Positions 1,465-60,613 of a stretch of 64,000 bases of DNA are shown one piece after another. Position numbers and translations under genes: made by a program. Positions within the stretch are counted from its first letter, which is position 1. The number at the start of each line of letters is the position of its first letter. Origin of the DNA: an uncultured Bacilli bacterium (lineage in GTDB: Bacteria > Bacillota_I > Bacilli_A > RF39 > UBA660); NCBI GenBank assembly GCA_934176955.1, contig CAKPOS010000006.1:8566-72565 (forward strand), written 5' to 3'. The notes beneath the pieces are model-generated. The model was not told the DNA's origin, made no database searches, and was given only the letters and a program-made list of their open reading frames with translations.

Positions 1465-3441
1465 ATGACTAAATTAAAGCGAGGTTTTTCTGTTTTTTTT
1501 AAACTTGTAGGTATTTCATTCTTATTTTTTTTAAGTTTTAATATTATTCTTTATTCTTATTGCTATATTACACCTAAAATATCCATACATAAAACTCAAT
1601 CCTATTATTTATATGATAACCAAAAAAAATTAATTTTTAATGATAATGATGAATGGGTTGATTTGGATAATATTAGTCCTTATTTAATACAAGCTACTTT
1701 ATCTACAGAAGATAAGTATTTTTATCAACACTTAGGATTTGATTATTTTAGAATTATTAAAGCGGCTATAAAAAACTTGCAAAGTAGAAGTTTAAGAGAA
1801 GGAGCATCTACAATTACTCAACAGTATGCTAGAAATTTATTTTTAAACTATGATAAAACATGGAGTAGAAAAATAGATGAGGCTATTTTAGCGGCTGAGT
1901 TGGAGACCCATTATAGTAAAAAAGAAATTTTAGAAGGGTATTTAAATACAATTAATTATGGTGGAGTTTATGGAATTGAAAATGCTAGTTGGTATTATTT
2001 TGGACATAGTTCTAAAACATTATCATTGGCAGAATCTTCTATGTTAGCTGGTATCCCTCAATCTCCTTCTAATTATTCTCCAATTATTAATGAAAATAAA
2101 GCCAAAAAGAGACAAAAAATAGTTCTTTTGTCTATGTATAATAGAAAAATTATTCAAAAGGAAGAAATGGATAATGCAATTAATTATTCACTTGAATATA
2201 TTGGAAAAACTAATCAAAGTAATTTAGAGAATGTTCTTTATTTTAGAGATGCTGTTATTGATGAATTGGAAAGTATCAATATTCCTAATTCGACATTACA
2301 GTCTGGTGGATTAAAAATTTATACTACTTTAGATGTTAAAGCTCAAGAAAGTTTAGAAAAAGCTATTCGTGACAATATGGATGATAGTACTGAATTGCAA
2401 GTTGCTGGGATGATGAGTAATCCTAATGATGGTAGTATTATTGCTTTAATAGGAGGAAAAGATTATTCTAAAAGTCAATTTAATAGGGTAATTAATGCTA
2501 AAAGACAAGTAGGGTCTACAATGAAGCCTATTCTTTATTATTCTGCACTTGAAAATGGATTTACTAGTGCATCTTGCTTTACGAGTGAAAAAACAACATT
2601 TAATTTTTCGAATGGAAAAAATTATACTCCTAGTAATTATAATGAAAGTTATGCAAATAGTTCTATTACTATGGGAGCAGCTATTTCTTATTCTGATAAT
2701 GTATATGCTGTTAAAACTCATTTATTTTTGGGGGAAAATACTTTAGTAAATATGTCCCATCGATTAGGAATTGAAAGTAAGTTATTTCCAAATCCTTCTT
2801 TAGCTTTAGGTACTGGAGAAATGAAAATGATTGAGCTTATTGAAGCTTACAGTACATTTGCAAATATGGGGAATCAAGTTAAGCAACATTTTATTGAAAA
2901 AATTGAAGATAGTTCTGGAAATATAATTTATCAATTTAGTCATTATAATGAAAAGATTCTGAATAAAAGTTTAACTTTTATTTTAAACGAAATGTTAACT
3001 TATACTTATGATAAATCCTTTATTAATTATAATTATCCAACCGTAATTAGTCTTTTACCAAAAATATCAAATAAATATGCTATTAAAACAGGAACAACAG
3101 ATACAGATGTGTGGATTGTTGGCTATAATAAAAATGCTGTTTTATCTATTTGGAATGGATATGATAATAATAAGAAAATTGATACCGGAGAGCATAATTA
3201 TCATAAAAATATTTGGATAGATACCATGGAAAATTATTTAAAAGATAAAGATAATAGTTGGTATGATATTCCTGATGATGTTGTAGGAACATTAGTAAAT
3301 CCTATTACTGGAGAATTAGCAAAAGAAGGAGATAAAAATACTAAAATATTTTATTTTTTAAAAGGAACGGAACCTAGCTATGGCACAAAAGATTTTGAAA
3401 CAGTTTTTAAAGAAGAAAATGAAAAAAAGTTTGCAAGTTAA
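1465..3441 (+). CDS. class A penicillin-binding protein (glycosyltransferase GT51 + transpeptidase)
   Basis: Track ORF 1444-3441; likely ATG 1465 after AGAGGG. It has an N-terminal TM helix. GT51 motifs are EDKYFYQHLGFD, GASTITQQ and RKIDEAILAAELE. Transpeptidase motifs are STMKP (SxxK), SDN and KTGTT. Confidence 0.9.
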   Translation: MTKLKRGFSVFFKLVGISFLFFLSFNIILYSYCYITPKISIHKTQSYYLYDNQKKLIFNDNDEWVDLDNISPYLIQATLSTEDKYFYQHLGFDYFRIIKAAIKNLQSRSLREGASTITQQYARNLFLNYDKTWSRKIDEAILAAELETHYSKKEILEGYLNTINYGGVYGIENASWYYFGHSSKTLSLAESSMLAGIPQSPSNYSPIINENKAKKRQKIVLLSMYNRKIIQKEEMDNAINYSLEYIGKTNQSNLENVLYFRDAVIDELESINIPNSTLQSGGLKIYTTLDVKAQESLEKAIRDNMDDSTELQVAGMMSNPNDGSIIALIGGKDYSKSQFNRVINAKRQVGSTMKPILYYSALENGFTSASCFTSEKTTFNFSNGKNYTPSNYNESYANSSITMGAAISYSDNVYAVKTHLFLGENTLVNMSHRLGIESKLFPNPSLALGTGEMKMIELIEAYSTFANMGNQVKQHFIEKIEDSSGNIIYQFSHYNEKILNKSLTFILNEMLTYTYDKSFINYNYPTVISLLPKISNKYAIKTGTTDTDVWIVGYNKNAVLSIWNGYDNNKKIDTGEHNYHKNIWIDTMENYLKDKDNSWYDIPDDVVGTLVNPITGELAKEGDKNTKIFYFLKGTEPSYGTKDFETVFKEENEKKFAS

Positions 3442-3447
3442 AAAAAA

Positions 3448-3482
3448 CATCTAATGAGAAAGAAGGATATCTCGATTAGATG
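3448..3482. terminator. bidirectional hairpin between the convergent PBP and ParB-like genes
   Basis: CATCTAAT...ATTAGATG arms with inner GAGA/TCTC pairing. Flanked by an A-run upstream and a T-rich stretch downstream. Confidence 0.5.
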
Positions 3483-3488
3483 ATTTTA

Positions 3489-4958
3489 TTATTTTTCTAT
3501 TTCAATAATTAGTTTAACAGAGTTTTCTAAATTTTCTTCATTAATATTTAAATGGTAACCAAAAGCTTCTAAATTAAGAGCCAAAGTTTTAATTGTATTT
3601 AAAACTGGTGTGATGTCTTTTGATGGTTGCTTCGTTGGAATATTCATAGATGGATTTTCTTTTGATTCTTCTTGAATTGAAATAGGAGTAGGATTGTTTA
3701 TTGGTTCTGTTACTTGAGGTTGCTCTAAAATTTCATTTTGATGCATTACATTATGAGGGATTCCTTGTTCTAATGATTGTTGCAAAACTTCCTGATTTGA
3801 CGAAGAACTAGTTGGTAAAACATTTTGTGACATATCATATTGATTTTGAGGTTGTTGAATAATTGGTGCTTGTTCTTGGATAGGAGAGATACCTTGATTT
3901 AATACAGGTTGTCCTATATTTTGAGGTTCTTGTTGTGGAACTTGGTTATAAATTGGAGGTATATTTCGAGGCTCTTCTATAGGCTGTACAGGTCTAGGTT
4001 CTACTAATTGATTATTATTTTGTAAGTTATCAATATTGAGAATATTATCTACTGATGTTGGATTTGGAATTGGACTTAATTGTTCTTGTTGTTGTCCAAT
4101 ATTAAATTGAGAATTATTTCCAATTGATTGATTATTAATAATATTTTGAGGAGAGGTTTGGACTGGAGGTACATTATTGTTTCCCATATCCGTTAAGTCA
4201 ATTAAATTATTATTATTTTGATTTGGAATATTTATTCCTCCCATATTCATATTTGTTGGTTCATCTTCTAGTGACGGAAAAAATCTTCCTCCAAAAGTTG
4301 GTTCTTGTGGTACCAAATTATTATTTTGAGAATTCATTCCCATATTATTATTTGACATATTATTCATTTGATTATTATTCATTTCTAAATCTTCCCTTTC
4401 ATATTCTTTGTTTAAATCAGATAAATTGATAATATCTGATTTTTTTGTTTCTCTATTTATTCTATCATATGTATTTTCTATCTGAGAATTATTAAAATTA
4501 AACATTCTTGAATTATTTAAACATTCTTCATTGTTAGTTCTATTATATATTGGCTTCTTATCTTGATCATTTATTTCTTGATTTTGATTTGGCGATGTAT
4601 CAGGTATGTTAATGAATTTTCCTGATCGTCTTTTTTGATCATTTGGGGTATTTCTTGAAGTTTTATTTTTTTTATCAAAATTATTAATTATTTTATATTG
4701 CTGTACCACTTCATCGTCTAGTTGTTTTACTAATGCAGGAACTGTTTTTAGACCTAGTATTCGAGCTATTTCATATCTTCTATTTCCAATTACTATTTCA
4801 TATTTATTGTTTTTAGGTCGTAATAATAACGGTTCTTGTATTCCATTTTCCCTTATAGAATCGATTAATTTTTGTACTTCATTGTCTATAATTAATTGTT
4901 CTTTGGGAGGAATAATTGTACCTATATCAATATTTTGAATAGTACTATTCAACTCCAT
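3489..4958 (-). CDS. ParB/Noc N-terminal-domain protein with a ~350-aa Q/N/P-rich low-complexity tail
   Basis: The N-terminal ~95 aa match the ParB N-domain (IQEPLLLRPKNNKYEIVIGNRRYEIARILGLKTVPALV; the arginine box is GNRR, not GERR). The rest is Q/N/P-rich with no recognisable HTH, plus a short ordered-looking C-terminus. It lies next to rsmG, where noc/spo0J normally sit. Start taken at the second ATG, 6 nt after AGAGGG. Confidence 0.7.
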   Translation of the reverse strand: MELNSTIQNIDIGTIIPPKEQLIIDNEVQKLIDSIRENGIQEPLLLRPKNNKYEIVIGNRRYEIARILGLKTVPALVKQLDDEVVQQYKIINNFDKKNKTSRNTPNDQKRRSGKFINIPDTSPNQNQEINDQDKKPIYNRTNNEECLNNSRMFNFNNSQIENTYDRINRETKKSDIINLSDLNKEYEREDLEMNNNQMNNMSNNNMGMNSQNNNLVPQEPTFGGRFFPSLEDEPTNMNMGGINIPNQNNNNLIDLTDMGNNNVPPVQTSPQNIINNQSIGNNSQFNIGQQQEQLSPIPNPTSVDNILNIDNLQNNNQLVEPRPVQPIEEPRNIPPIYNQVPQQEPQNIGQPVLNQGISPIQEQAPIIQQPQNQYDMSQNVLPTSSSSNQEVLQQSLEQGIPHNVMHQNEILEQPQVTEPINNPTPISIQEESKENPSMNIPTKQPSKDITPVLNTIKTLALNLEAFGYHLNINEENLENSVKLIIEIEK

Positions 4959-5066
4959 AAGCATCCCTCTATTCTTTTTATTCTATTAGTATCATACAAT
5001 AATTTTTTTGTTTTTTCAATCCTTTCAAAAAAATTATTAAATTAATTGAAAGAAGTGTTAACTATT

Positions 5067-12205: not shown

Positions 12206-12378
12206 AGATACACCTCCTAATCAAAAATGCTACTTTATTATATATGTTAAAATTCAATCTGTCAACATGTAAGTTTACAAAAAATTGCTATTTTGGAGGA
12301 GGAATAAGACTTTTTTTAGCTTTTTTCTTATTTTTATGATAGAATATTGTTAAATAATAGATAGTTAGGAGATTGATT

Positions 12379-14133
12379 ATGTTTAAAGAAATTACTGCAA
12401 TTAGTAAAAATTTTGCTTGGGTAAAAATGGACGGAACTACTACTGATGACTTGTTAAATATGAATGTAGTATTTGAAGAAAATGAAAAAAAAATTTTAGG
12501 TGAAGTCGATGAAATTGATAATGGCCAAGTTAAAATTAGTTTTTTAGGAGAATTTATTAATGGCAACTTTCAAGGAGGGATTATTCGAAAACCAAGTTTA
12601 ACTTCAAAAGTAAGAATAATTAACCAGGAAGAATTAGGGGAATTAGTAGGAAGTAATGGAAAAAGAAGTATGATTTTGGGATTATCTCCTTTATATAATG
12701 ATTGTCCAATAAAAATAGATATAGATGATATGTGGAGTAATCATAATGCTTTTTTTGGTAATACTGGTAGTGGAAAAACTTATGGGGTTTCCAGATTTGT
12801 CCAAAATTTATTTAATATGTCAGATAAAATTCCATTTAATAGTAATATTTTTATTTTCAATAATACTGATGAATACGATAATGCATTTAGGAGTATTGGA
12901 AATTATAATATTAATTTTAATTATAAAATGTATTCAATTAGCGGAGAAGGTGGAAACAAAATTCAATTACCTTTATGGCTATTGTCGGTTGATGACTACG
13001 CTAATTTGTTAGATGTTACGGCGTATTCTCAGTTAGCAATTATTGAAAAAATGTTAAGTTTAGTATCTGTCTTTGCAAGAAATGATGAAAATTCTAAAAG
13101 ATACAAGAATCATTTAATTGCGAGTGCTATTGTTTCAGTACTTTACACTAATCAAACTGCTGGTCGAATACGTGATCAAATATTTTCAATTTTAGAAAAT
13201 TGCAATACTGATGAATTAAATCTAAATGTTGACGTTCCAGGGATTGGTTATACTCGTCAGTTTAGAAAATGTTTTGAAATAGATAGTAAGGGAGAATTTG
13301 CAGAAAGAATACTTATAGCAGAATATATCCAGCAATTCATAGATAATAATACGAAATGGAATGAGGATTATGTCCCTATTTATTTTACACTTGATGATTT
13401 AGAAATTGCTTTAAACTTTGCTCTCATCTCTGAAGGATTATTACTAAATGAAAAAACATCATCTGAAGCAATGGCATTAAAAGTTAAGTTACATACAATT
13501 AATAATAGTAGTTATAAAAATTTATTTCATTGTGATAAATTTTGTACTTCATCTGACTTTATTACTAGCATTATCATGATTGGCACTAATAAAAGGGCAC
13601 AAATTATTAATTTTGTATTAGAAGATATTGATGATCGATTTGCCAAAGCAATTGTAAAAGTTTATTGTCGTATTATTTTTAAATTTAGTAAAGGGTTAAG
13701 AGATAGAGGAGCAATGCCTATTCATTTGATGTTAGAAGAAGCACACCGATATGTACAAAAAGATTATGATATAGATATACTGGGATATAATATTTTTGAA
13801 AGAATTGCTAAAGAAGGACGTAAATTTGGAGTAATTATGGACCTTATTACACAACGTCCTACTGAATTAAGTGAAACTGTTATTTCACAATGCACAAATT
13901 TTTTAATTTTTAAAATTACTCATCCAAGTGATTTAGACTATATTAAAAAGATGGTTCCAAATATAAGTAATGATGTAATTGAAAAACAAAAAACTTTACA
14001 AGCTGGTACTTGTGTTGCTTTCGGAAAAATGATGAAAATTCCTATGATTGTAAAAATGCAATTACCTAATCCTGAACCCCATAGTTCTAATGCATCAATA
14101 TTTGATAAGTGGATGATTACAATAAATAAATAG
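12379..14133 (+). CDS. HerA/DUF87-family (FtsK-HerA superfamily) ATPase, no adjacent partner gene
   Basis: N-terminal barrel-like segment, Walker A GNTGSGKTYG and Walker B-like HLMLEEAHRY. EGRKFGVIMDLITQRPTELSETVISQCTNFLIFKITHPSDLDYI is typical of HerA. ATG 12379 lies 6 nt after AGGAGA, and an extended -10 (TGATAGAAT) is upstream. Confidence 0.8.
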   Translation: MFKEITAISKNFAWVKMDGTTTDDLLNMNVVFEENEKKILGEVDEIDNGQVKISFLGEFINGNFQGGIIRKPSLTSKVRIINQEELGELVGSNGKRSMILGLSPLYNDCPIKIDIDDMWSNHNAFFGNTGSGKTYGVSRFVQNLFNMSDKIPFNSNIFIFNNTDEYDNAFRSIGNYNINFNYKMYSISGEGGNKIQLPLWLLSVDDYANLLDVTAYSQLAIIEKMLSLVSVFARNDENSKRYKNHLIASAIVSVLYTNQTAGRIRDQIFSILENCNTDELNLNVDVPGIGYTRQFRKCFEIDSKGEFAERILIAEYIQQFIDNNTKWNEDYVPIYFTLDDLEIALNFALISEGLLLNEKTSSEAMALKVKLHTINNSSYKNLFHCDKFCTSSDFITSIIMIGTNKRAQIINFVLEDIDDRFAKAIVKVYCRIIFKFSKGLRDRGAMPIHLMLEEAHRYVQKDYDIDILGYNIFERIAKEGRKFGVIMDLITQRPTELSETVISQCTNFLIFKITHPSDLDYIKKMVPNISNDVIEKQKTLQAGTCVAFGKMMKIPMIVKMQLPNPEPHSSNASIFDKWMITINK

Positions 14134-14208
14134 ATATTAGTTTGTAGTTATGCTTATTTCAAAAATAATTGATGTTAATGAATAATTTAGTTTGTTTGTA
14201 CGAATCAA

Positions 14209-14239
14209 GGGTACTATATTTATGCAGTACTCTTTTTTT
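14209..14239 (+). terminator. intrinsic terminator after the HerA-like gene
   Basis: GGGTACT-N10-AGTACTC stem followed by T7. Confidence 0.5.
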
Positions 14240-14486
14240 GAGATATACTATTTATTATTTTTTGATATATTTCTGAAATTGTTTTAAATACTTTAATATT
14301 ATTTTATATTCGTATTACCATTTAAGAAATTATTCATTACTAATACCTCTATTCTTTCAGTTTTAAATTGTTATGTTTTGATTTAAATACTTTTTATTTA
14401 AATTAGGTAGAACAACATATTATAGTAAAATAGGATATTTTTTCTTAATATCTACTAAATGCTAACAAGGAAAATGTTATGATAAC

Positions 14487-14656
14487 TGTGGATTTAATTT
14501 ATTAACAATCCTTATAAATCAAGGTTTTAACACTTTTTCCACAATTATCAACTTTTTTATTTTTTTTCCACAGTAGTATGTTTAAAACTATCTGTGGATA
14601 TTTGTGGAAAAGTTGATAAAAATCAATTAAAGTAAAGGTTTTGTTCCTGTGGATAA
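14487..14656. promoter_or_regulatory. oriC part 1: cluster of six DnaA boxes upstream of dnaA
   Basis: The boxes are TGTGGATTT 14487, TTTTCCACA 14535, TTTTCCACA 14564, TGTGGATAT 14593, TGTGGAAAA 14603 and TGTGGATAA 14648 (perfect). Consensus is TTATCCACA or its complement. Confidence 0.8.
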
Positions 14657-14753
14657 CTTCAAAATAACATAGTTTTTTGTTACTTAGTAATAAATTTATA
14701 GAAAAAAAATAAGATTTATGTTAATATTGTTAGTGAACGTGGGAGGGATTAGA

Positions 14754-16157
14754 ATGGACATTGATGATTTATGGAAAAATTTTCTAGAGATAATAAAAAA
14801 TAGTATTTCGTCTTTATCGTATCAAACTTGGTTTTATGGTACAAAACTAGTATCTATTTCTAATAATACTGCTATTATTATTGTTCCAATGCCTGTTCAC
14901 AAAAAGCATTTGATGGAAAATTATCTAGATGTTATTGAAGATAAATTTAAACAGTTGACCGGTACAGTTTTTGAATTTGAATTCATGTTAGAAGAAGAGT
15001 GGGAACAAAACAAAAATAGTTTTATAACTAATGATGGTTATGATAAAGCAGTAGAGGAGAAGGAGAGCAATCCCCAAAATAGTATAGAAATTTCACCTAA
15101 AAGCTTTGAAGATGCTAATTTAAATGAAAATTATAACTTTGATAATTTTATTGTTGGAAATTCTAATCGTTTTGCTTTTACTGCATCTATGGCTGTTGCT
15201 GAAAAACCAGGGAAAGCATATAATCCTTTATTTTTGTATGGAAAAAGTGGTTTAGGAAAAACACATTTAATGCATTCGATTGGTAACTATATACTGAAAC
15301 ATACTAATTTGAGAGTTTTATATATATCTAGTGATAAATTTGTTAATGATTTTATTAATGCTGTTAGAAATAATGATAAAAATAACTTTAAAAAAATAGA
15401 TAATTTTAAAGCTAAATATAGAAATATTGATGTTTTAATGATTGATGATATACAATTTTTAGGAAATGCAACTAAAGGACAAGAAGAATTTTTTCATACT
15501 TTTAATGAGCTTTACAATGAGAATAAGCAAATAATTATTGCTTCTGATCGTTCTGTTGATGACTTGAAAATGTTAGAAAATAGGTTGCTTACTAGATTTA
15601 ATTGGGGATTAACAGCTAATATTACTCCTCCTGATTTTGAGTTAAGAATGAATATTTTAGAAAGAAAGATAGCCCACCAAGAATCAGCTAAAGATGTTCC
15701 TAAAGAAGTTATTGAATATATAGCTAACAATTTTGCTTCTGATATTAGACAATTAGAAGGCGCAATAACTAGAGTTTTTGCTTATGCATTAATGATGAAT
15801 AAGGGGATTGTTGATTTAGATACTGCTGTTGATGCGTTAAAAGATCAACTTACAGATAGAAGTGTTTATAAAAATGACGTTCATAGAATTCAAACTGTAG
15901 TTTGCGACTACTTTAAAATTACTTTAGAAGATATAAAAGGGAAAAAAAGGAGTCAAAATATCAATTATCCTAGACAAGTTGCTATTTATCTCTGTAGAAC
16001 ATTAGCCAATGAATCTTTTCCTAAAATTGGAACTTATTTTGGAGGAAGAGATCATTCAACAATTATGAGCTCATATCAAAAAATTCAAAAAGAATTACTA
16101 GTGAATGAACAACTAAAAATAGTAATTAAAGAATTAAAACAACAATTATCCCCATAA
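14754..16157 (+). CDS. dnaA: chromosomal replication initiator DnaA
   Basis: AAA+ motifs GKSGLGKTHL and IDDIQFL, plus a C-terminal DnaA-box-binding domain. ATG 14754 follows GGGAGGG (the track ORF begins earlier, at 14718). Confidence 0.95.
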   Translation: MDIDDLWKNFLEIIKNSISSLSYQTWFYGTKLVSISNNTAIIIVPMPVHKKHLMENYLDVIEDKFKQLTGTVFEFEFMLEEEWEQNKNSFITNDGYDKAVEEKESNPQNSIEISPKSFEDANLNENYNFDNFIVGNSNRFAFTASMAVAEKPGKAYNPLFLYGKSGLGKTHLMHSIGNYILKHTNLRVLYISSDKFVNDFINAVRNNDKNNFKKIDNFKAKYRNIDVLMIDDIQFLGNATKGQEEFFHTFNELYNENKQIIIASDRSVDDLKMLENRLLTRFNWGLTANITPPDFELRMNILERKIAHQESAKDVPKEVIEYIANNFASDIRQLEGAITRVFAYALMMNKGIVDLDTAVDALKDQLTDRSVYKNDVHRIQTVVCDYFKITLEDIKGKKRSQNINYPRQVAIYLCRTLANESFPKIGTYFGGRDHSTIMSSYQKIQKELLVNEQLKIVIKELKQQLSP

Positions 16158-16168
16158 TTGGGGAATAT

Positions 16169-16258
16169 TGTGGATAAGTATTTTCTTTTCAACAAATAAT
16201 GTGGAAAAAAAAACACTTATCCAAAAAGGAAAAAATATAGTTTTCCACAGTTTCCACA
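16169..16258. promoter_or_regulatory. oriC part 2: five DnaA boxes between dnaA and dnaN, followed by an AT-rich stretch
   Basis: The boxes are TGTGGATAA 16169 (perfect), TGTGGAAAA 16200, TTATCCAAA 16217, TTTTCCACA 16241 and GTTTCCACA 16250. ATTATAATAAATAATATAATTAAAG then precedes the dnaN RBS. Confidence 0.8.
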
Positions 16259-16297
16259 TTATAATAAATAATATAATTAAAGAAAGAAGGAAGAAAA

Positions 16298-17605: not shown

Positions 17606-18094
17606 ATGTTAGAAAATTATGAAATTAATGATGAAACTTTAGCAATTGTTCCATATGATTTTGGAAAATCCAAAGTTTATGAGTATGATGAGGAATTTAT
17701 AGTTAATATGATTCCTTTAACAATTATTAAAAATAGTTGTTTATTTTTCGGTTCATCATTTGAAGGAAGGAGAGATGCATCTAAAAATATTATTGGGGTT
17801 GATATGAAAGTTCCAATTCTTATAGAGGAAAGCAGAAATATTATATTTTTTCCTGTTTCCAGTTGTATTAATAAAAATAGCATTTGGATATCTTATCAAA
17901 ATTTATTAAAATACTCTAAAAGTAGTTTGAGTACTTCCAATTTATATTTTAAAAATAAGAAAAATCTTCAATTACCTGTTAAGTATAATTTAATTGATAA
18001 TCAAGTTATTCGTTGTATTAAATTAGATACTCTTTTGCTTAAAAGAAAAAAGTTTATTAAAACTGCTGTTACTGATGTTGAAGTAGAAATGTAA
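17606..18094 (+). CDS. comK: competence transcription factor ComK
   Basis: Aligns along its length with B. subtilis ComK. Examples: YEINDETLAIVP vs YEVNGATIAVLP, VNMIPLTIIKNSCLFFGSSFEGRR vs VNMKPLQIVDRSCRFFGSSYAGRK, IIFFPVSS...IWISY vs IFLFPTLS...GWISH, and LQLPVKYNLIDNQV vs MELPISYNSFENQV. Confidence 0.85.
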   Translation: MLENYEINDETLAIVPYDFGKSKVYEYDEEFIVNMIPLTIIKNSCLFFGSSFEGRRDASKNIIGVDMKVPILIEESRNIIFFPVSSCINKNSIWISYQNLLKYSKSSLSTSNLYFKNKKNLQLPVKYNLIDNQVIRCIKLDTLLLKRKKFIKTAVTDVEVEM

Positions 18095-21495: not shown

Positions 21496-23937
21496 ATGCA
21501 AGAAGAAAGAGATAAGAAAATATCAGTTAATATAGTAGAAGAAATGAGGACTTCTTTTCTTGACTATTCAATGAGTGTAATTGTAGCAAGAGCAATTCCA
21601 GATGTGCGAGATGGATTAAAACCTGTTCATCGAAGAGTATTATATACTTTATATGAAGAAGGTATGACACCTGATAAGAAATATCAAAAGAGTGCTAATG
21701 CTGTTGGTGCTGTTATGGGTCATTATCATCCACATGGAGATAGTGCTATTTATGATACTATGGTTAGAATGGCTCAAGATTTTACTTATAGACATTGTTT
21801 GGTTGATGGTCATGGAAATTTTGGTTCGATAGATGGAGATGGTGCTGCAGCAAGTCGTTATACTGAAGCAAGATTAGCCAAGATATCAATGGAGTTATTG
21901 AGAGATTTGAATAAAGATACTGTTGATTTTTCTGAAAATTATGATGGTCAAAGAAAAGAACCAGTGGTTTTACCAAGTCGTTTTCCAAATATTTTAGTAA
22001 ATGGAAATATGGGAATAGCTGTTGGAATGGCTACCAATATTCCACCCCATAATTTGGGTGAAGTAATTGATGGTTGTGTAGCATATATTGACAATCCGGA
22101 TATTACTGTCTCTCAATTAATGGAATTTATTAAAGGTCCTGATTTTCCAACTTATGGAGTTATTTTAGGAAACAGTGGTATTAGAAAAGCATATGAGACT
22201 GGTAGAGGAACCATTACTATTAGAGGAAAAGTTGAAATTGTTGAAAAAGCAGGAAAATCACATATTGTTATAACTGAACTTCCTTATCAAGTTAATAAAA
22301 AGGCTTTAATTACTAGAATTGGTGAATTAGTTAGAGATAAAATATTAGATGGGATTTCTAATTTAAGTGATGAATCAGCTTTAGAGGGTATTAAAATAGT
22401 TATTGATGTAAAAAAAGATGCTAATATAAATGTTGTTTTAAATAATTTATACAAGCATACTCAGTTACAAACGACTTATGGCATTAATTTTTTGATGTTA
22501 GTAGATGGTCGTCCTCGTACTTTGGATTTAAAAACTATTTTAGAAAAGTATGTTGAACATCAAAGACATGTAATATATCGTAGATGTCAATTTGATTTGA
22601 AAAAATATAATGCTAGATTACATATTTTGAGTGGTTTAAAAATTGCTTTGGATAATATAGATAGGGTAATAAAGATTATTAGGGAATCAGAAACTGATGA
22701 AATAGCACAAGCTGAATTAATATCTAATTTTGGTTTATCAGAAATACAATCACAAGCTATTTTAGAGATGCGTTTAAAACGGTTGACAGGTATGGAAAAG
22801 TCGAAAATAGAAGAGGAAATTTCTGAATTATTAAAAATGATTGAAGAACTAGAAGAAATTTTAGCGTCTAAAGAAAAGATTGATGCTGTAATAAAGAAAG
22901 AAATGTTAGAAATTAAAGAAAAATATAGTGATGAGCGTAGAACTTATATAGATATGACAGCGATCGAATATATAGAGGATGAGTCATTGATACCTGTGGA
23001 AAACATAGTAATTACTCTTACAAATAAGGGATATATAAAAAGGTTACCTGTGGATTCTTATAAAACGCAACATAGAGGTGGTGTAGGAATAAAAGGAATG
23101 ACAACTAATGAAGAAGATTTTGTTGAAAACATTATTAATACCACATCACATGATTATATTTTATTCTTTACAACTAAAGGTCGAGTATTTAGAATAAAGG
23201 GTTATGAAATTCCGGAATTTTCTAGACAATCAAAAGGATTACCAATTATTAATTTATTAAATTTAGAAAAAAACGAAAAAGTGACGTCATTGTTAAAAAT
23301 AAGTAAAAATGATAACTGTAAATTTTTAGTCTTTGCGACAAAAAATGGTTTAATAAAAAGATCTGATATTTCTGAATTTAATAGTATTAGAAATAACGGG
23401 AAAAAAGCTATTACCTTAAAGGATAGAGATGAATTAATTTCTGTAAAAAAGACTAATGGAAGTAATGAAATTTTAATGGCTTCATCTAATGGAAGAATGG
23501 TTCGTTTTTCTGAAGAATCACTAAGGATAATGGGAAGAAGTGCTTCTGGAGTTAAAGGTATTAATTTAGACGGTGGTATATTAATTAATATGGATGTTGT
23601 TGAAAGTAATCAACAAGTTTTAGTAATTACAAGAAATGGTTATGGTAAAAAAACTCCAATAGAGGAGTATAGAATTACTAATCGTGCTGGAAAAGGTGTA
23701 AAGACTGTTAATATTACTGATAAAACTGGGGATATTGTATCTTTTGAAATAATACCTTCTGGATGTGATAAAGATGTTATGTTAGTTACAAATGAAGGAA
23801 TTATTATTCGAATAGATGTTTCTCAAATTTCTACCATGAGTAGAGTTACTCAAGGAGTTAAATTAATTAATTTAAAAGAAGAACAATTTGTTAGTTCTGT
23901 TACTATAATTGATAAATTAGAAGAATGTGAAGATTAG
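21496..23937 (+). CDS. gyrA: DNA gyrase subunit A
   Basis: HPHGDSAIYD and the active-site region AAASRYTEARL. C-terminal beta-pinwheel repeats. Confidence 0.95.
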   Translation: MQEERDKKISVNIVEEMRTSFLDYSMSVIVARAIPDVRDGLKPVHRRVLYTLYEEGMTPDKKYQKSANAVGAVMGHYHPHGDSAIYDTMVRMAQDFTYRHCLVDGHGNFGSIDGDGAAASRYTEARLAKISMELLRDLNKDTVDFSENYDGQRKEPVVLPSRFPNILVNGNMGIAVGMATNIPPHNLGEVIDGCVAYIDNPDITVSQLMEFIKGPDFPTYGVILGNSGIRKAYETGRGTITIRGKVEIVEKAGKSHIVITELPYQVNKKALITRIGELVRDKILDGISNLSDESALEGIKIVIDVKKDANINVVLNNLYKHTQLQTTYGINFLMLVDGRPRTLDLKTILEKYVEHQRHVIYRRCQFDLKKYNARLHILSGLKIALDNIDRVIKIIRESETDEIAQAELISNFGLSEIQSQAILEMRLKRLTGMEKSKIEEEISELLKMIEELEEILASKEKIDAVIKKEMLEIKEKYSDERRTYIDMTAIEYIEDESLIPVENIVITLTNKGYIKRLPVDSYKTQHRGGVGIKGMTTNEEDFVENIINTTSHDYILFFTTKGRVFRIKGYEIPEFSRQSKGLPIINLLNLEKNEKVTSLLKISKNDNCKFLVFATKNGLIKRSDISEFNSIRNNGKKAITLKDRDELISVKKTNGSNEILMASSNGRMVRFSEESLRIMGRSASGVKGINLDGGILINMDVVESNQQVLVITRNGYGKKTPIEEYRITNRAGKGVKTVNITDKTGDIVSFEIIPSGCDKDVMLVTNEGIIIRIDVSQISTMSRVTQGVKLINLKEEQFVSSVTIIDKLEECED

Positions 23938-23951
23938 TTTAAGTCATTCTA

Positions 23952-23985
23952 TGTTCCACGTGAAACATAGAATGACTTTTCCACA
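23952..23985 (+). promoter_or_regulatory. parS site 1 plus adjacent DnaA box, embedded in a 38-bp palindrome (23941-23978) right after gyrA
   Basis: TGTTCCACGTGAAACA (23952-23967), then 9 nt, then TTTTCCACA (23977-23985). The palindrome AAGTCATTCTATGTT/AACATAGAATGACTT can also serve as the gyrA terminator. Confidence 0.8.
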
Positions 23986-24010
23986 TATATATTAATAAGT
24001 AAAATATTTT

Positions 24011-24035
24011 GACTTTATATTAAAGTCTTTTTTTT
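24011..24035 (+). terminator. intrinsic terminator
   Basis: GACTTTA-TAT-TAAAGTC followed by T8. Confidence 0.6.
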
Positions 24036-24454
24036 ATCAACTTAATTTAATATATATTAGGGTACTATATTCTAAATATTTTTTATGTAAAGAGTAATTT
24101 TTTTTATATAAAATAGATTTATCAACATAAAAATAAAGAATTTAATAATATACAAATATTAAAATAAGATAAGTTTTAAGTCTGTAAAAGTAAAGAAATA
24201 AACGACATAGCAATGATATTACGTTATCGTATTCTTTCAATTGAAGATAAGTAAATTCGTTATTTTATGTTGTTATGATTGAAAAAACTAATTTGAATTG
24301 GAAATATATGAATATATAGAATTAATTAAGAGAAAAAATAGTTTTAGACAAGTAGATCTATTATAAATAGCAGAAATAATGTATTTAAAGATAGATTTTT
24401 GTAGTACTTTTTATAATTTTTGAGTAATGTTAAAATTTTTGTTTAAATCAATAA

Positions 24455-24487
24455 TGTTTCACGTGAAACATAAAATAAATTTCCACA
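24455..24487 (+). promoter_or_regulatory. parS site 2 plus adjacent DnaA box
   Basis: TGTTTCACGTGAAACA (perfect palindrome, 24455-24470), then 8 nt, then ATTTCCACA (24479-24487). Confidence 0.8.
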
Positions 24488-25101
24488 GTAGATATAAATT
24501 CATCTTTTTTTGTAATAATTGTATATATATATTTAAATTTGTTATGAATTAATTTTTCTTTTATGTCATTATATTTTCTTAGTTTAGTTAATATAAAAAA
24601 AATAATTTTATGTTATAAAGAAAGATGGAAATATAAATAAATAACTGATGAAATGTTTTTTGAATCTTATAATTGGGAAGTATTTTATCATTTATAAGTT
24701 TGAAGGTAAAAATAAGTATTTTTGGCTGATGAGAAAGAAGGCAGTATATAAATAATTAATTATCTAAGTAATTAGCATAAAGTAGGATTTATTTATGAGT
24801 GAAAGAAAAAAATCTTTAAAGATTAGTTTGAAAATTGTATTTTAAGCTGCAATTAGAACATTAATCTTTATAGAATTTAAAGAAATTTTCGGCAAGTTAG
24901 ATATTTTTCTATAAATAAAAAATCTAATAATAATATCAACATGTTTAAAGAATATAAATTTGTAATATACAAACGAGAAAAATTCTAAAAATAATTTTTT
25001 TACATTCTTATAGATATCTATATTATTTTTTTGTTTATTAAACTTTATAATTTATTTGTTTTTTTAGAGAATTTTTGAACAATTAAATTTGTACATTTTT
25101 A

Positions 25102-25131
25102 TGTTTCACGTGGAACATAAAGTTATCCACA
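25102..25131 (+). promoter_or_regulatory. parS site 3 plus adjacent perfect DnaA box
   Basis: TGTTTCACGTGGAACA (25102-25117), then 5 nt, then TTATCCACA (25123-25131). Confidence 0.85.
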
Positions 25132-25154
25132 GTACTTTAATTTTTAATATAATA

Positions 25155-25187
25155 TGTTTCACGTGGAACATATTAATATTTTCCACA
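25155..25187 (+). promoter_or_regulatory. parS site 4 plus adjacent DnaA box
   Basis: TGTTTCACGTGGAACA (25155-25170), then 8 nt, then TTTTCCACA (25179-25187). Confidence 0.8.
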
Positions 25188-25373
25188 AGCAACTAAATTT
25201 ATTACATGTAGTTTAGTAATTGGGGAAAATTGGTTAATAACATTGGCATAGTAGGTCAAGTTCGTTAGAAATCAAGGAAAAAAGTATACCAAAATTCATA
25301 GATGACATTGAAATTGTTTGATTAAGGTCATACAAGATACTCCGTGTTTCTGTGTTGCGGAGAGGTTCATTTT

Positions 25374-25405
25374 AAAAAGCTAACGCTCAATTAGCTTTTT
25401 TATTT
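25374..25405. terminator. bidirectional intrinsic terminator with no annotated gene on either side
   Basis: AAAAAGCTAA-CGCTCA-ATTAGCTTTTTT, with an A-run before and a T-run after. Confidence 0.6.
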
Positions 25406-25457
25406 TGTGTGAAATTTATTTTTGAAACTAATAACATGATTTGTAGAAAACGACAAA

Positions 25458-25653
25458 AGTTACAGTTCAGTCAGATAAAATAAGTGTTTAAATGATATTT
25501 TTTTATAAAAAATACTAAAATAGTCTTATTTTACTAATAAATTGTGTGAAATTTTATCCATTTATCATTATTTTGTTTATTAAAATTTTTACGAACTTCT
25601 TTATTTATATTTGGTTAGAGCTGTTTTATATTTTTCTTGACTGAACTGTAACT
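25458..25653. mobile_element. MITE-like element: 16-bp perfect terminal inverted repeats, ~164-bp AT-rich core, flanking 6-bp direct repeat
   Basis: AGTTACAGTTCAGTCA (25458-25473) and TGACTGAACTGTAACT (25638-25653) are exact reverse complements. GACAAA lies immediately outside both ends (25452-25457 and 25654-25659). There is no ORF inside. Confidence 0.45.
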
Positions 25654-25682
25654 GACAAAAAAATTAAAATGGTAAGATCATA

Positions 25683-25711
25683 TTGATTTTTCTTTTTTTT
25701 TGTTTTATAAT
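25683..25711 (+). promoter_or_regulatory. sigma-A-type promoter of the SRP RNA
   Basis: TTGATT (25683-25688), 17 nt, TATAAT (25706-25711). The predicted start G at 25718 coincides with the first base of the SRP hairpin. Confidence 0.55.
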
Positions 25712-25717
25712 TATTTT

Positions 25718-25797
25718 GATGCAATAGTATTTATTTGGAATTAAGTCAGGATTGGAAAATAGCAGCTTTAACAGATTTTACTATGTGCATCTTTTTT
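25718..25797 (+). ncRNA. ffs: small (4.5S-type) signal recognition particle RNA
   Basis: Single hairpin GAUGCAAUAGUA...UACUAUGUGCAUC. Its apex GUCAGGAUU-GGAA-AAUAGCAGC matches the domain IV consensus GUCAGGUCC-GGAA-GGAAGCAGC (GGAA tetraloop, symmetric-loop UCAGG/AGCAG). A U-run follows. The position immediately upstream of dnaX matches scr-dnaX in B. subtilis. Confidence 0.7.
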
Positions 25798-25916: not shown

Positions 25917-27608
25917 TTGGCATATCTTGCATTATATAGAAAATATAGGCCTAAAAATTTTGATGACTTAGTTGGTCAAAATGAAATTGTGAATATTATT
26001 AAAAATGAAATTTTAAATAATAAACTATCTCATGCTTACTTATTTTCTGGTCCTCGTGGTACTGGAAAAACTTCCACTGCAAAGATTATTTCTAGAATGA
26101 TTAATTGCGAAAATTTGGGAGATGATGGTGTACCTTGTAATAAATGTGAAAGCTGTGTACATTTTTCAGAAAATAGTGATATTATTGAAATTGATGCAGC
26201 TTCTAATAATGGAGTAGATGAAATACGTGAATTAAGGGATAAAGTCAATTTGGTTCCTACTTATGGTAAATATAAAGTATATATAATTGATGAAGTTCAT
26301 ATGTTGACTACTCAAGCTTTTAATGCATTGCTAAAAACATTAGAAGAACCTCCAGCACATGTAATATTTATTTTAGCTACTACAGAATTTTTTAAAATAC
26401 CTGAAACAATTGTTTCTAGATGTCAAAAATTTCAATTTTCGAAATTTTCTTTAAATGATATAGTTAATAGGTTACGTTATATTTCTACCCAAGAAAATAT
26501 ATCTGCTTCAGAAGATGTTTTATTTGAAATTGCTCGCTTGGCAGATGGTGGACTTAGAGATGCCATTAATATGTTAGATCAGTTGTCATCGTTTAATAGT
26601 AATGGTATAAAATTAGAAGATGTTTATTTATTAAATGGTGTTGTTTCTTATATGGATTTTTATGATTTATTATCGAATATGAAAAATTGCAATTGGGAAC
26701 AAATAATTGTTTTTTTTGAAGAATTTGATAGGAATGGCAAAGATTTTGAAAGATTTATAGAGGATTTAATATCTTTTGTAAGTGAAATTTTGCTTTATTT
26801 AGTGAACAATGATTTTAGAAGTAGTATTAAAGAAAAAAATGAATTAATAAAGAAAGTATCTAGTTTTTTCTCTAAAGAGAATTTATATGATTTTATATTG
26901 TTTTTGAATGATTTATTTTTTAAACTAAAAATCTCATCTTTTACTAAAATTTTAGTTAGTACAGAATTTATTAAATTTTCTCATTCAATTTTTTTGAATT
27001 CTGATATCGAAAAAAATAATAATCAAGTCGTTAATCATAGCAACAATATTAAAACACTAAATGAAAGTAGAATGTTAATTTCTTGTAATCAGAAAAAAAT
27101 TTCTGATGATGAAAAAAAAATTATAATTAATAATGCTTTTTCATCGGCTTCTAAAAAAAATAAGGAATCTTTTTTAAAAAAGTGGAATGAATTTAAAGAG
27201 TATATAGTAAATAATCAACAATTTTTTGGTATTTATGGTTTATTGAATGACATTGAAGTTTTAGTAGTAGGAGATAAAAATATAATATTTTTAGCTAGTT
27301 ATAACTCTATAATTACAAGGCTTTTTGAAAATATTTTTAGTATAGAGCAAGCTTTGAATGAGTTCTATGCTATTAAATATAAAATTGTTTTTTTGAATTC
27401 TGAACAATGGAAAAAAGAACGAGAAAAATATATACTAAATATAAAAAAAGGTGTAAAATATAATTATATTAATGAGAATGATGATAATTTAGCGTCAAAT
27501 AATTTTTCAGATAAAAAATTAAATAGTGACACATTTGACGATAATATAGAAAATGACGTTAATAAAATTACTTCAATTTTTGGAGATAATATTGTTTCGT
27601 TTGATTAA
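25917..27608 (+). CDS. dnaX: DNA polymerase III subunit tau (gamma/tau)
   Basis: Starts with TTG: MAYLALYRKYRPKNFDDLVGQ. Has GPRGTGKTS, IIDEVHML and a Zn module CNKCESC. Confidence 0.95.
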   Translation: MAYLALYRKYRPKNFDDLVGQNEIVNIIKNEILNNKLSHAYLFSGPRGTGKTSTAKIISRMINCENLGDDGVPCNKCESCVHFSENSDIIEIDAASNNGVDEIRELRDKVNLVPTYGKYKVYIIDEVHMLTTQAFNALLKTLEEPPAHVIFILATTEFFKIPETIVSRCQKFQFSKFSLNDIVNRLRYISTQENISASEDVLFEIARLADGGLRDAINMLDQLSSFNSNGIKLEDVYLLNGVVSYMDFYDLLSNMKNCNWEQIIVFFEEFDRNGKDFERFIEDLISFVSEILLYLVNNDFRSSIKEKNELIKKVSSFFSKENLYDFILFLNDLFFKLKISSFTKILVSTEFIKFSHSIFLNSDIEKNNNQVVNHSNNIKTLNESRMLISCNQKKISDDEKKIIINNAFSSASKKNKESFLKKWNEFKEYIVNNQQFFGIYGLLNDIEVLVVGDKNIIFLASYNSIITRLFENIFSIEQALNEFYAIKYKIVFLNSEQWKKEREKYILNIKKGVKYNYINENDDNLASNNFSDKKLNSDTFDDNIENDVNKITSIFGDNIVSFD

Positions 27609-46156: not shown

Positions 46157-46520
46157 ACTTAGATAGAGAGTACTTGGCATATTACTCATTTAAAACTTGT
46201 ACTTCTAGATGAAAGAGAAGTATATTGATTGAATGACTAAAATAATATCTAAAAAATATTTTGTTAAGTTAACTTTCTTTGTTTGGTAGAAAAGATATAA
46301 GTATGTCTTTGTTCTTATCGCCACTAAGTGAGACGCGCGTTTTGAGAAAGATAAACTCGAAAGGATAAGAAGTTGAGATAGGCACTGATAATGTCTATTA
46401 AATGGGGGAATAGTATATAGGTTATGTTAGATAATTCTATATATTATTGATGTAATTCCAATTCAACCTTTTCTTAAACTAGAAATGAATCAATGTTATC
46501 AGTATTGATTCATTTTTTTT
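46157..46520 (+). ncRNA. unclassified structured RNA candidate (~364 nt) with its own promoter and terminator
   Basis: No ORF over 21 codons. Multiple hairpins include a small three-way junction closed by CUUAUC/GAUAAG (46312-46370) containing the GC-rich GAGACGCGCG. Ends at a strong terminator, and a separate metG promoter follows. Confidence 0.4.
46487..46520 (+). terminator. intrinsic terminator
   Basis: GAATCAAT-N9-ATTGATTC followed by T8. Confidence 0.7.
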
Positions 46521-58947: not shown

Positions 58948-59763
58948 ATGGGAAAGATTATTGCAATTGTTAATCAAAAAGGTGGAGTAGGGAAGACTAC
59001 AACAAGTATTAATCTATCCGCTTCTTTGGGTGTTTTGAACAAGAAGGTTCTTTTAGTTGATTTGGATCCTCAAGGAAATGCTACTACTGGTGTTGGTGTT
59101 GATAAGGGAGGAATTAATAGTAGTATTTATGAAGTTCTTGTAATGAAATCACCTATTGAGAAATCAATTATTAAAACGAAAAGTAAAAATCTTTATTTAT
59201 TACCAGCATATTTAAACTTAGCTGGTGTTGATATGGAACTTATTGAAATGGAAAAGAAATATCATGCAGAAGGCTTAAAATTTAATCGTGTATTGAGATT
59301 AAAGGAAGAGTTAGATAAAGTTCGGGATAAGTTTGATTTTATTTTTATTGATTGTCCACCTTCTCTTGGAATTTTGACAACGAATGCTTTGGGAGCTGCT
59401 GATAGTGTATTAATTCCTGTTCAATGTGAATATTTTGCATTAGAAGGAATTATGCAATTAATTAATACGATTATGCTTGCTCAGAAGAAAGTAAATCCTA
59501 ATTTAGATATTGAAGGAGTTTTACTTACGATGCTTACTACGAATACTAATTTGGGACTTGAAGTAGTAGATAGTATTAAGGGATTTTTTAAAGAAAGGGT
59601 ATATGATACAATTATACCAAGGTTGATTCGTTTGGCTGAGGCTCCATCTCACGGAAAACCAATATTAGAATATGAGCCTAGAAGTAGGGGAACTTTGGCA
59701 TATTTGAATTTGGCTAAGGAGGTCATTGAGAAGAATGGAACAAAAAAAGAAAGCGTTGGGTAG
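58948..59763 (+). CDS. soj: ParA/Soj chromosome-partitioning ATPase
   Basis: Deviant Walker A NQKGGVGKTTT; 271 aa. Confidence 0.9.
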   Translation: MGKIIAIVNQKGGVGKTTTSINLSASLGVLNKKVLLVDLDPQGNATTGVGVDKGGINSSIYEVLVMKSPIEKSIIKTKSKNLYLLPAYLNLAGVDMELIEMEKKYHAEGLKFNRVLRLKEELDKVRDKFDFIFIDCPPSLGILTTNALGAADSVLIPVQCEYFALEGIMQLINTIMLAQKKVNPNLDIEGVLLTMLTTNTNLGLEVVDSIKGFFKERVYDTIIPRLIRLAEAPSHGKPILEYEPRSRGTLAYLNLAKEVIEKNGTKKESVG

Positions 59764-60613
59764 AGGTCTTGAACAATTATTTAGTAGTGAAGTTTTAGAT
59801 TTTGATACATTTGAAGATAATATTATGGAAAATGCAAAGGAATCTGATATTATTCAAATTTCTTTAGCGGATATTCGTACTAATCCTTATCAACCAAGAA
59901 AGCATTTTGATCAAGAGGCTTTAGATGAATTAGCTACTTCTATTCGTAATTATGGTGTATTTCAACCAATTATTGTAAAGAAAAGTATTAAAGGTTATGA
60001 TTTAGTTGCCGGTGAAAGAAGACTTCGTGCTTCTAAGTTAGCTGGTTTGGAAACGATTCCTGCAATTGTTAAGGATTTTTCGGATGAAGAAATGCGTGAA
60101 ATTGCTTTGCTTGAAAATATTCAAAGAGAAAATCTTACTTCGATTGAACTTGCTTGGGCATATAAGGGAATTATTGATAACCTTCATATTCGACAGGAAG
60201 ATTTAGCTGCTAAAATAGGAAAGAGTCGTAGTCATGTTACAAATACTTTAGGTCTTTTAAAGTTACCAAATGATGTACAAGATATGGTTAGAGATAATCA
60301 AATTTCTATGGGACATGCTAGGGTTCTTAGTAAGATGGAAGATGATGAAAAAGTAGAGGAACTAGCAAAGAAAGTTGTTCAAAATAATATTAGTGTTCGT
60401 GATTTAGAGGATATTTCTAGCCAGGAAAAGGTTGAGAAAAGAGTCCCTATTAATCGTCAAAGTAAAACTAATGAATATCAATATATTGAAGAGGAACTTA
60501 GAGATATTTTAGGAACAAAAGTAAAAGTTGATAATAAAAAAATTGAGATATTCTTTGAATCTAAAGTAGATTTGACAAGAATATTAGATATATTAAATGT
60601 AAATGTTGAGTAA
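59735..60613 (+). CDS. spo0J: ParB/Spo0J chromosome-partitioning protein
   Basis: MEQKKKALGRGLEQLF, arginine box LVAGERRLRASKLAG, and HTH region SRSHVTNTLGLLKL. Confidence 0.9.
   Translation: MEQKKKALGRGLEQLFSSEVLDFDTFEDNIMENAKESDIIQISLADIRTNPYQPRKHFDQEALDELATSIRNYGVFQPIIVKKSIKGYDLVAGERRLRASKLAGLETIPAIVKDFSDEEMREIALLENIQRENLTSIELAWAYKGIIDNLHIRQEDLAAKIGKSRSHVTNTLGLLKLPNDVQDMVRDNQISMGHARVLSKMEDDEKVEELAKKVVQNNISVRDLEDISSQEKVEKRVPINRQSKTNEYQYIEEELRDILGTKVKVDNKKIEIFFESKVDLTRILDILNVNVE

Follow-up and report, generated by a model that had tools for sequence, protein, structure and literature searches.

How bacteria coordinate the initiation of chromosome replication with the segregation of the chromosome is still an open question, and the links known so far are either proteins, such as Soj and DnaA in Bacillus subtilis, or single loci, such as parS of Caulobacter and rctA of Vibrio. 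In Caulobacter crescentus, DnaA drives the movement of the centromere, for which it needs a site inside the parS locus (Mera 2014 as summarised in PMC4468827, PMC6399470). The ywcI-vpr region of B. subtilis binds both DnaA and Spo0J (Ishikawa 2007, PMC2533591), and in the same organism the deletion of DnaA-box clusters (DBCs) interacts genetically with the deletion of spo0J (Okumura 2012, PMC3245932). On chromosome II of Vibrio cholerae, parS2 lies inside rctA, a locus that titrates the initiator RctB, and the binding or spreading of ParB alters initiator occupancy there (Yamaichi 2011; Venkova-Canova 2013, PMC3688505). A direct interaction between ParB and DnaA has been reported for Deinococcus and Vibrio. 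Here we describe a 64-kb stretch of DNA from an uncultured Bacilli bacterium (contig CAKPOS010000006.1; the whole stretch is called the window hereafter), where each of four parS sites in the spacer between gyrA and dnaX is followed by a predicted DnaA box.

Initiator sites at centromeres are already known, and the new variation is a repeated one-to-one module with a constant polarity. The original prediction made on this DNA, which regarded the composite as not being a described element, was too strong, since both the DnaA site of the Caulobacter parS and the ywcI-vpr region precede it. The literature searched in full text describes neither a repeated 1:1 module of parS and DnaA box that keeps its polarity nor a co-variation of such a module with oriC, an absence that is no proof. 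The link in the window appears to be written in the DNA, as a repeated 1:1 module with an initiator half that co-evolves with oriC.

Four parS sites, each with a DnaA box

The spacer (23938-25714, 1.78 kb) is strongly AT-rich (20% GC) and, as expected from the earlier reading of it as gene-free, holds no open reading frame (ORF) longer than 41 amino acids. The parS sites were located as motif matches, with no strand assigned: parS1 is TGTTCCACGTGAAACA (23952-23967), which starts 14 nt past the gyrA stop codon, parS2 is TGTTTCACGTGAAACA (24455-24470), a perfect palindrome, and parS3 and parS4 are both TGTTTCACGTGGAACA (25102-25117 and 25155-25170). All four are perfect matches to the 16-bp inverted repeat tGTTNCACGTGNAACa, and A...T flanks extend each of them to an 18-bp palindrome, so that both the coordinates and the palindromes originally given were exact. 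From one parS to the next, the composites are spaced by 503, 647 and 53 bp. When the 64-kb window is searched for TGTTNCACGTGNAACA, even with up to two mismatches, these four sites are the only ones found (0.11 expected), and there is none inside spo0J/parB (59726-60613), in agreement with what had been noted by eye. The array lies 8-10 kb to the right of dnaA/oriC, and the spacer is, as predicted from its motifs, the centromere array of this chromosome, with four putative ParB-loading sites. An assembly artefact is excluded, because the identical array is present in six independent metagenome contigs from different samples.

Each parS is accompanied by a single box on the + strand. Box 1, TTTTCCACA (23977..23985), is separated from parS1 by a gap of 9 nt and differs from TTATCCACA at one position; box 2, ATTTCCACA (24479..24487), follows parS2 after 8 nt with two mismatches; box 3 (25123..25131), 5 nt past parS3, is the perfect consensus TTATCCACA; and box 4 (25179..25187), again TTTTCCACA with one mismatch, lies 8 nt past parS4. 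The strand and the gaps of the original prediction held, but its pattern TTWTNCACA does not fit all four, as box 2 falls outside it. Start to start, the parS-linked boxes are 502, 644 and 56 bp apart, and a lone box-like 9-mer without a parS partner, TTATCAACA (24119..24127, +, a motif match), brings the count to five boxes per 1.2 kb. The T-rich end of the box (TTAT) points towards parS in all modules of the window, where the box occupies the origin-distal side, with edge gaps of 5-9 bp and centre-to-centre distances of 18-22 bp; when the closest relative (L007, see below) is added, these distances group at 17-18 or 21-22 bp.

The box variants are those that the chromosome uses at its own origin. 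The DnaA-box cluster of oriC (14487..14656), which lies upstream of dnaA and serves as the reference for the variants of this genome, and the cluster between dnaA and dnaN (16146..16260, motif matches), which includes the tandem pair TTTTCCACAgTTTCCACA, contain together five copies of TTTTCCACA and two of TTATCCACA. The variant of box 1 is the same as the oriC boxes at 14535, 14564, 14603, 16200 and 16241, and that of box 2 is also present in the oriC of two relatives (L007 and L009). Judged by sequence, the parS-linked 9-mers are genuine DnaA boxes, in variants used by the oriC of this lineage, which upholds the earlier assignment; their co-variation with oriC in relatives, described in the next section, points the same way.

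Whether relaxed boxes are frequent enough in such AT-rich DNA to fall beside every parS had been set beforehand as a check. The background of [AT]T[AT]TCCACA amounts to 1.9e-4 per position per strand in the window and to 7.5e-6 in Markov sequence with the composition of the spacer. The probability of finding boxes within 15 bp of four out of four sites is about 1.6e-8 for any side and strand, and about 5e-12 when side and strand are fixed, which excludes chance for the four pairs. On this sequence evidence, the pairing of parS and box is under selection and not a product of chance.

Conservation of the array and of its companions

All ten relatives retrieved through their GyrA (65-93% identity) carry a parS array, with 3-12 sites, in the gene-free gyrA-(tadA)-dnaX spacer, and because all of them carry it there, the predicted gyrA-dnaX centromere locus is a feature of the clade. 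The closest relative, L007, belongs to a separate species, in which a protein with a ParB N-terminal domain (ParB_N) is 68% identical to that of the window. The spacers of the two species cannot be aligned except for the signal recognition particle (SRP) RNA gene and the dnaX promoter region, and in L007 all three parS are followed by TTTTCCACA, with gaps of 8, 4 and 5 nt. Taken together, 7/7 parS of the two species keep a + strand box 4-9 nt away despite this turnover. Over the window and the GyrA-retrieved relatives, a strict box occurs within 12 bp of 13 of the 49 parS sites, against an expectation of 2.4% (p = 1e-10); GyrA-retrieved loci from other phyla have too few parS to provide a baseline. 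One of the relatives, L071, shows in addition two perfect parS 42 bp apart within the 3' coding region of dnaX (14206-14263), besides the two in its gyrA-dnaX spacer.

In several lineages the companion of parS changes together with the boxes of the origin. L012 has an oriC of type TTTTGCACA, of which there are seven copies in 13 kb: six in oriC and one exactly 9 nt past parS1. The oriC type of L013 is (G)TTATTAACA or TTATCAACA, and four of its five parS are followed by TGTT(G/A)ATAA(C/T), that is, by the TTAT(T/C)AACA type; in L008 and L010, where the oriC type is TT(A/T)TCAACA, the companion beside parS is TTATCAACA. Across lineages the companion thus shifts with the oriC box of each one (TTTTCCACA, TTATCAACA, TTATTAACA or TTTTGCACA), and parS stays unchanged. 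This co-variation marks the companion as a DnaA box and speaks against a ParB half-site or the site of an unrelated factor. These uncultured gut Bacilli offer in this way a conserved centromere locus at gyrA-dnaX together with lineage-specific variants of the DnaA box.

The oriC boxes of these relatives lie at 3267-5014 and 12522 in L012, at 2237-4247 and 11989-12384 in L013, and at about 3270-3500 in L008 and L010. Domain IV of the L012 DnaA reads GGKNHTT, against GGRDHST in most relatives, a change that could be a shift in DnaA specificity.

Composites in other bacterial groups

Metagenome contigs were scanned for the composite parS-N{3,10}-TTWTCCACA, which returned at least 120 loci with GC contents from 19% to 70%. 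Among the matches listed, the positions are origin-proximal and intergenic, either upstream of parA or in the rsmG-parA, mnmE-mnmG and gyrA-dnaX intervals. At least 20 further AT-rich loci have the order gyrA-array-dnaX, and most of their parS have a box 2-9 nt away with its TTAT end facing parS. Boxes accompany four of four parS in L160, six of six in L156 (three of them strict), seven of nine in L208 and five of seven in L166; in L167 the six parS all have a box as a mirror image, on the origin-proximal side. Every array keeps to one polarity (window 4/4, L007 3/3, L160 4/4, L156 6/6, L208 7/7 of the box-bearing sites, and L167 6/6 mirrored), and the reverse orientation of the box is rare, with 3 of 209 parS among the metagenome matches listed. 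When non-index sites of the AT-rich metagenome relatives are counted, a strict box lies within 12 bp of 13 of 43 parS, where 3.1% would be expected (p = 4e-10). The gaps of the metagenome matches listed peak at 4 and 8 nt, a distribution that is phylogenetically redundant and on which we do not rely.

Two groups of high GC content, unrelated to the clade, have diverged flanks and keep both motifs. In one of them, parS is followed after 3-5 nt by TTTTCCACA upstream of parA (eight loci: L115, L119, L131, L152, L174, L180, L191 and L169), with more ttccaca/ctccacag motifs about 60 bp downstream. In the other (L101 and L159), parS is followed after 8-9 nt by TTATCCACA right past the mnmE stop codon.

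A different companion is found in some arrays. L046 contains at least 12 tandem units of about 79 bp (12646-13653, to the end of the contig), each with a parS and a perfect Noc-binding site (NBS), ATTTCCCGGGAAAT, and an NBS also lies directly beside parS in L014 (12647/12663), L144 and L194. No NBS of this sequence is present in the available DNA of the window, L007, L009 and L071. Judging from these motifs, the array of the clade appears to be a hub in which ParB sites have DnaA or Noc sites as partners.

Setting of the spacer and partition genes of the window

The spacer is bordered on its left by gyrA (21496..23937, +; NCBIfam gyrA equivalog, 1174 bits). The first parS sits at the apex of a 38-nt palindrome (23941..23978, +; 19+19 nt, inverted repeat I22 and RNA fold), which is probably the intrinsic terminator of gyrA, as had been suspected from its appearance. 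Its RNA folds into a hairpin at -18.5 kcal/mol (z = -5.6), and the U-tract that comes next, UUUU, is the TTTT that opens box 1. The first parS of L007 likewise lies at the top of a hairpin (-19.9 kcal/mol), with arm sequences unlike those of the window, in a compensatory pattern. The first conserved feature past the spacer is the gene of the SRP (4.5S) RNA (25715..25797, +; Rfam RF00169, 49.4 bits), which is kept in L007, and dnaX (25917..27608, +; NCBIfam) forms the right-hand edge of the locus. An Rfam search of the spacer, with E values up to 1, returned the SRP RNA alone and no hidden RNA gene. Between parS4 and the SRP RNA there is a GC-richer pair of hairpins (25330-25400, +) with a T-run after the second one; the GC-richer stretch at 25200-25410 folds no better than shuffled sequences, and the hairpins are not conserved in L007. 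A scan of the spacer for promoters and terminators was uninformative in this AT-rich DNA.

The window as a whole is the origin region of an uncultured gut member of the Bacilli, "Tenericutes"-like and with 26% GC. The GC skew switches at about 12 kb, just left of the oriC box cluster, and is positive throughout 24-25 kb. The order on the - strand is rsmG, mnmG, mnmE, an mscS-like gene, jag, yidC, rnpA and rpmH, and that on the + strand after the switch is a herA-like gene, dnaA, dnaN, comK, recF, gyrB, gyrA, the spacer, SRP RNA, dnaX, ybaB and recR. The product of dnaA (14718..16157, +; NCBIfam DnaA equivalog, 506 bits) is the probable binder of the boxes. At 16241-16290, the tandem box pair is followed by DnaA-trio-like repeats and an AT-rich unwinding element. 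The herA/DUF87-type ATPase gene (12373-14133, +), between rpmH and dnaA, and comK (17606-18094, +), between dnaN and recF, recur in contigs L001-L006 of the same species, and the L007 species too has the herA-like gene. Farther away, a match to the PGK RNA motif (46307-46398, +; RF03040, 56 bits) lies upstream of an ORF at 46780.

ParA, ParB and DnaA are all encoded within the window, and the presence of the cognate ParA and ParB supports the earlier view of the four sites as genuine origin-proximal parS. The gene parA/soj (58948..59763, +) was recognised by NCBIfam ParA-family matches, and parB/spo0J (59726..60613, +), by tblastn and profile scores, as a canonical full-length gene whose product, with N domain, helix-turn-helix and C domain, is the presumed binder of the four parS. 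It shares 45% identity with residues 3-278 of B. subtilis Spo0J (tblastn) and scores 200 bits with the parB_part model (cut-off 58) and 230 bits with the Noc model, under its cut-off of 315. About 35 kb separate this soj-spo0J pair (58948-60613) from the parS array, and about 45 kb from oriC; unlike in B. subtilis, the pair is not beside rsmG and its spo0J has no internal parS.

Another protein of the window, of 491 amino acids (3489-4964, -), is encoded beside rsmG, the position of noc in B. subtilis. We rejected it as the parS binder: it has the ParB N-terminal domain only, with no helix-turn-helix, and the canonical ParB is encoded at 59726-60613. This N-terminal domain, of the CTPase type and with GNRRY replacing GERRxR, is the sole one recognised, and the remainder comprises Asn/Pro-rich linkers, the invariant motifs FGGRFFPSLEDE..TNM and IDLTD, and, at the C-terminus, a segment about 45 amino acids long that is conserved. 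It has more than 200 homologues of 370-560 amino acids, all from uncultured bacteria.

Possible roles of the composite

We favour, tentatively and with somewhat less than even confidence, a reading where the occupancy of the box by DnaA gates the action of ParB at each loading site. At most about two helical turns would separate a ParB dimer on parS from domain IV of DnaA on the box, and because the sites are 2-9 bp apart edge to edge, the two proteins would have to touch or exclude each other. Tight DNA-bound proteins stop the spreading of ParB, and DnaA on its box could halt or bound, on one side, the ParB-CTP clamps that leave parS; it could also be a switch for ParB loading, through which the assembly of the segregation complex would be tied to the status of the initiator. 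Gating of this kind would resemble what DnaA does at the centromere of Caulobacter. The geometry agrees just as well with the opposite direction, in which ParB clamps would evict or shield DnaA. A more general proposal, which we regard as doubtful, is that parS and DnaA box make up a widespread and hitherto unrecognised bipartite cis-module of fixed polarity (TTAT towards parS, gap of about 3-9 nt) for a direct interplay of the initiator with ParB-CTP clamps on DNA, where DnaA would be, for example, a directional gate or a loader for the clamps. If true, it would mean a DNA-encoded coupling of replication and segregation that is independent of Soj, with Noc sites as the equivalent partner in some lineages.

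Several observations weigh against gating by DnaA as a general rule. The pairing is not obligatory, as L009, L011, L071 and L014 have mostly bare parS, and in L046 and L014 the companion of parS is a Noc site rather than a DnaA box, so that the comparison of spacers proposed beforehand had a mixed outcome: the pairing is kept at 3/3 sites in L007, but bare parS or Noc companions appear in several relatives. The boxes of L008 and L013 have the opposite orientation, with gaps of 0-3 nt. Across the species compared, the side of the box varies, about 10 being origin-distal and about 6 origin-proximal, and because of this difference any model tied to the orientation of the chromosome is weakened. 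Gaps range from 2 to 9 nt, and since they vary in this way, a rigid docking geometry between the two proteins is not required. Finally, because the metagenome loci were chosen by the composite itself, any frequency that they yield outside the clade is biased.

Regulation could also run from ParB to DnaA, which we consider rather unlikely as the main role. Escherichia coli datA is a non-origin DnaA-box locus near oriC that acts on the initiator, and in the sense of datA or of the B. subtilis DBCs the boxes would be sites that hold initiator: bridging between parS would collect the four dispersed boxes into a three-dimensional cluster, clamps or condensate would sequester or evict DnaA, and free DnaA would be adjusted soon after the duplication of the locus, about 10 kb from oriC. 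The geometry is silent on which protein regulates which, and an origin-proximal locus doubles early. There are also precedents, as B. subtilis has DBCs and parS near oriC, where deletion of DBCs and spo0J over-initiates synergistically (PMC3245932), its ywcI-vpr region is bound by both DnaA and Spo0J, and the ParB2 of V. cholerae chromosome II, at parS2 within rctA, counters initiator titration. The known sinks, however, are tight clusters, and here there are just 4-5 boxes in 1.2 kb, one per parS, at the wide spacings given above; because such tight clustering is absent, a sink of the datA or DBC type, as originally proposed, fits poorly. Its titration capacity would be tiny, and some species have one or two composites or none. 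The other original suggestion, a third segment of oriC, or else an anchor that would loop DnaA to the box clusters flanking dnaA, is highly improbable: the box variants are shared with an oriC 8-10 kb away and the spacer has only 20% GC, but no composite has a tandem box pair with a trio-like unwinding region of the kind seen at 16241-16260, the skew switches elsewhere, at about 12 kb, and boxes are missing from the parS array of several relatives. As an oriC segment the array, about 8 kb beyond dnaA, fails precisely because it lacks that pair with its unwinding region and any skew switch.

The boxes might instead belong to transcription, as promoter or terminator elements under DnaA control, which would insulate parS and the downstream SRP RNA/dnaX, with their closeness to parS as a by-product of packing, a possibility to which we give little weight. 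In the window as in L007, the TTTT of box 1 doubles as the U-tract of the hairpin that probably terminates gyrA, TCCACA of box 3 with a 16-nt spacer and TATAAT scores 10/12 as a promoter, the high-GC composite is located in the parA promoter region, and gidAB-parAB of Pseudomonas aeruginosa is under DnaA regulation. Promoter-like matches in the AT-rich spacer, however, are barely above those of shuffled sequences (31 vs 22 expected), boxes 2 and 4 lack a convincing -10 element, no gene lies between parS1 and parS4, and the 1:1 pairing, the constant polarity and the short range of gaps across species would be left unexplained. That the 9-mers are not DnaA sites at all, but an extra ParB half-site (TGTTCCAC being like TTTTCCAC) or the site of another protein, is highly improbable. 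The sequence TTTTCCAC agrees with the parS half-site at 7/8 positions, but the ninth base is A in 7/7 boxes of the window and L007, as in TTATCCACA, and G in parS; box 3 is the perfect DnaA consensus; and the companions in L008, L010, L012 and L013 follow their own oriC variants next to a constant parS. On the ninth base and this co-variation we rejected the half-site. The least probable account, effectively refuted by the sequence data, is chance or the hitch-hiking of a box carried along in the duplication of one ancestral parS+box unit. Tandem expansion does occur in relatives (at least 12 units of about 79 bp in L046, units of about 128 bp in L156), and there is a weak similarity of 68-81% over 20-30 nt around the sites of the window. 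Against it stand a chance probability of about 1e-8 or less, gaps that differ in length (5, 8, 8 and 9 nt) and sequence, a spacer that has fully turned over between the window and L007 with every site still boxed, and a box type that tracks oriC in four lineages.

The composite of about 35 bp is a compact substrate on which to ask whether ParB and DnaA bind cooperatively or exclusively, whether ParB-CTP clamps slide off it in a preferred direction, and whether Noc sites replace DnaA boxes in other lineages.

Comparison with known systems

Firmicute parS arrays reportedly load ParB-CTP clamps, the spreading of which is said to be limited by protein roadblocks (Murray 2006; Soh 2019; Jalal 2020). 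The array in the window has the same 16-bp consensus as ordinary arrays of this kind, forms an origin-proximal cluster like them, and comes with a cognate ParAB; it also has a sequence-specified neighbour site built in at each parS, which the usual account of such arrays does not include. In datA of E. coli, a bacterium without ParABS, a cluster of boxes together with an IHF site promotes the hydrolysis of DnaA-ATP, whereas the locus of the window shows no such clustering of boxes. As in the ywcI-vpr region of B. subtilis, origin-proximal DnaA sites are co-located with parS, but the DBCs of that bacterium consist of many closely packed boxes, near which a parS occurs now and then, and the window has single boxes at a nucleotide-scale distance from each parS.

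In P. aeruginosa, the DnaA boxes of oriCII regulate gidAB-parAB (PMC13438810). These boxes lie in the mnmG/parAB neighbourhood, a context similar to that of the high-GC composites upstream of parA or after mnmE; parS, however, is 10-20 kb away from parAB there and not beside the boxes, and the composite of the window is not at the promoter of a partition gene. In rctA/parS2 of V. cholerae, as in the window, a centromere site stands amid an initiator site, which couples replication and segregation in cis in V. cholerae, but the initiator is RctB and not DnaA, and the setting is a single locus, with no array, on a plasmid-like secondary chromosome.

In Caulobacter, where the same DNA-binding domain of DnaA is used at ori and parS and a coupling of initiation and segregation has been proposed, the likeness lies in an initiator box inside a ParB centromere locus near the origin, at a distance of a few kb in that organism. 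The window, known from its sequence alone, differs in having a Firmicute-type host, a position in the gyrA-dnaX spacer, and one box per parS across an array, at four of the four sites, with a conserved range of gaps (2-9 nt) and a conserved polarity.

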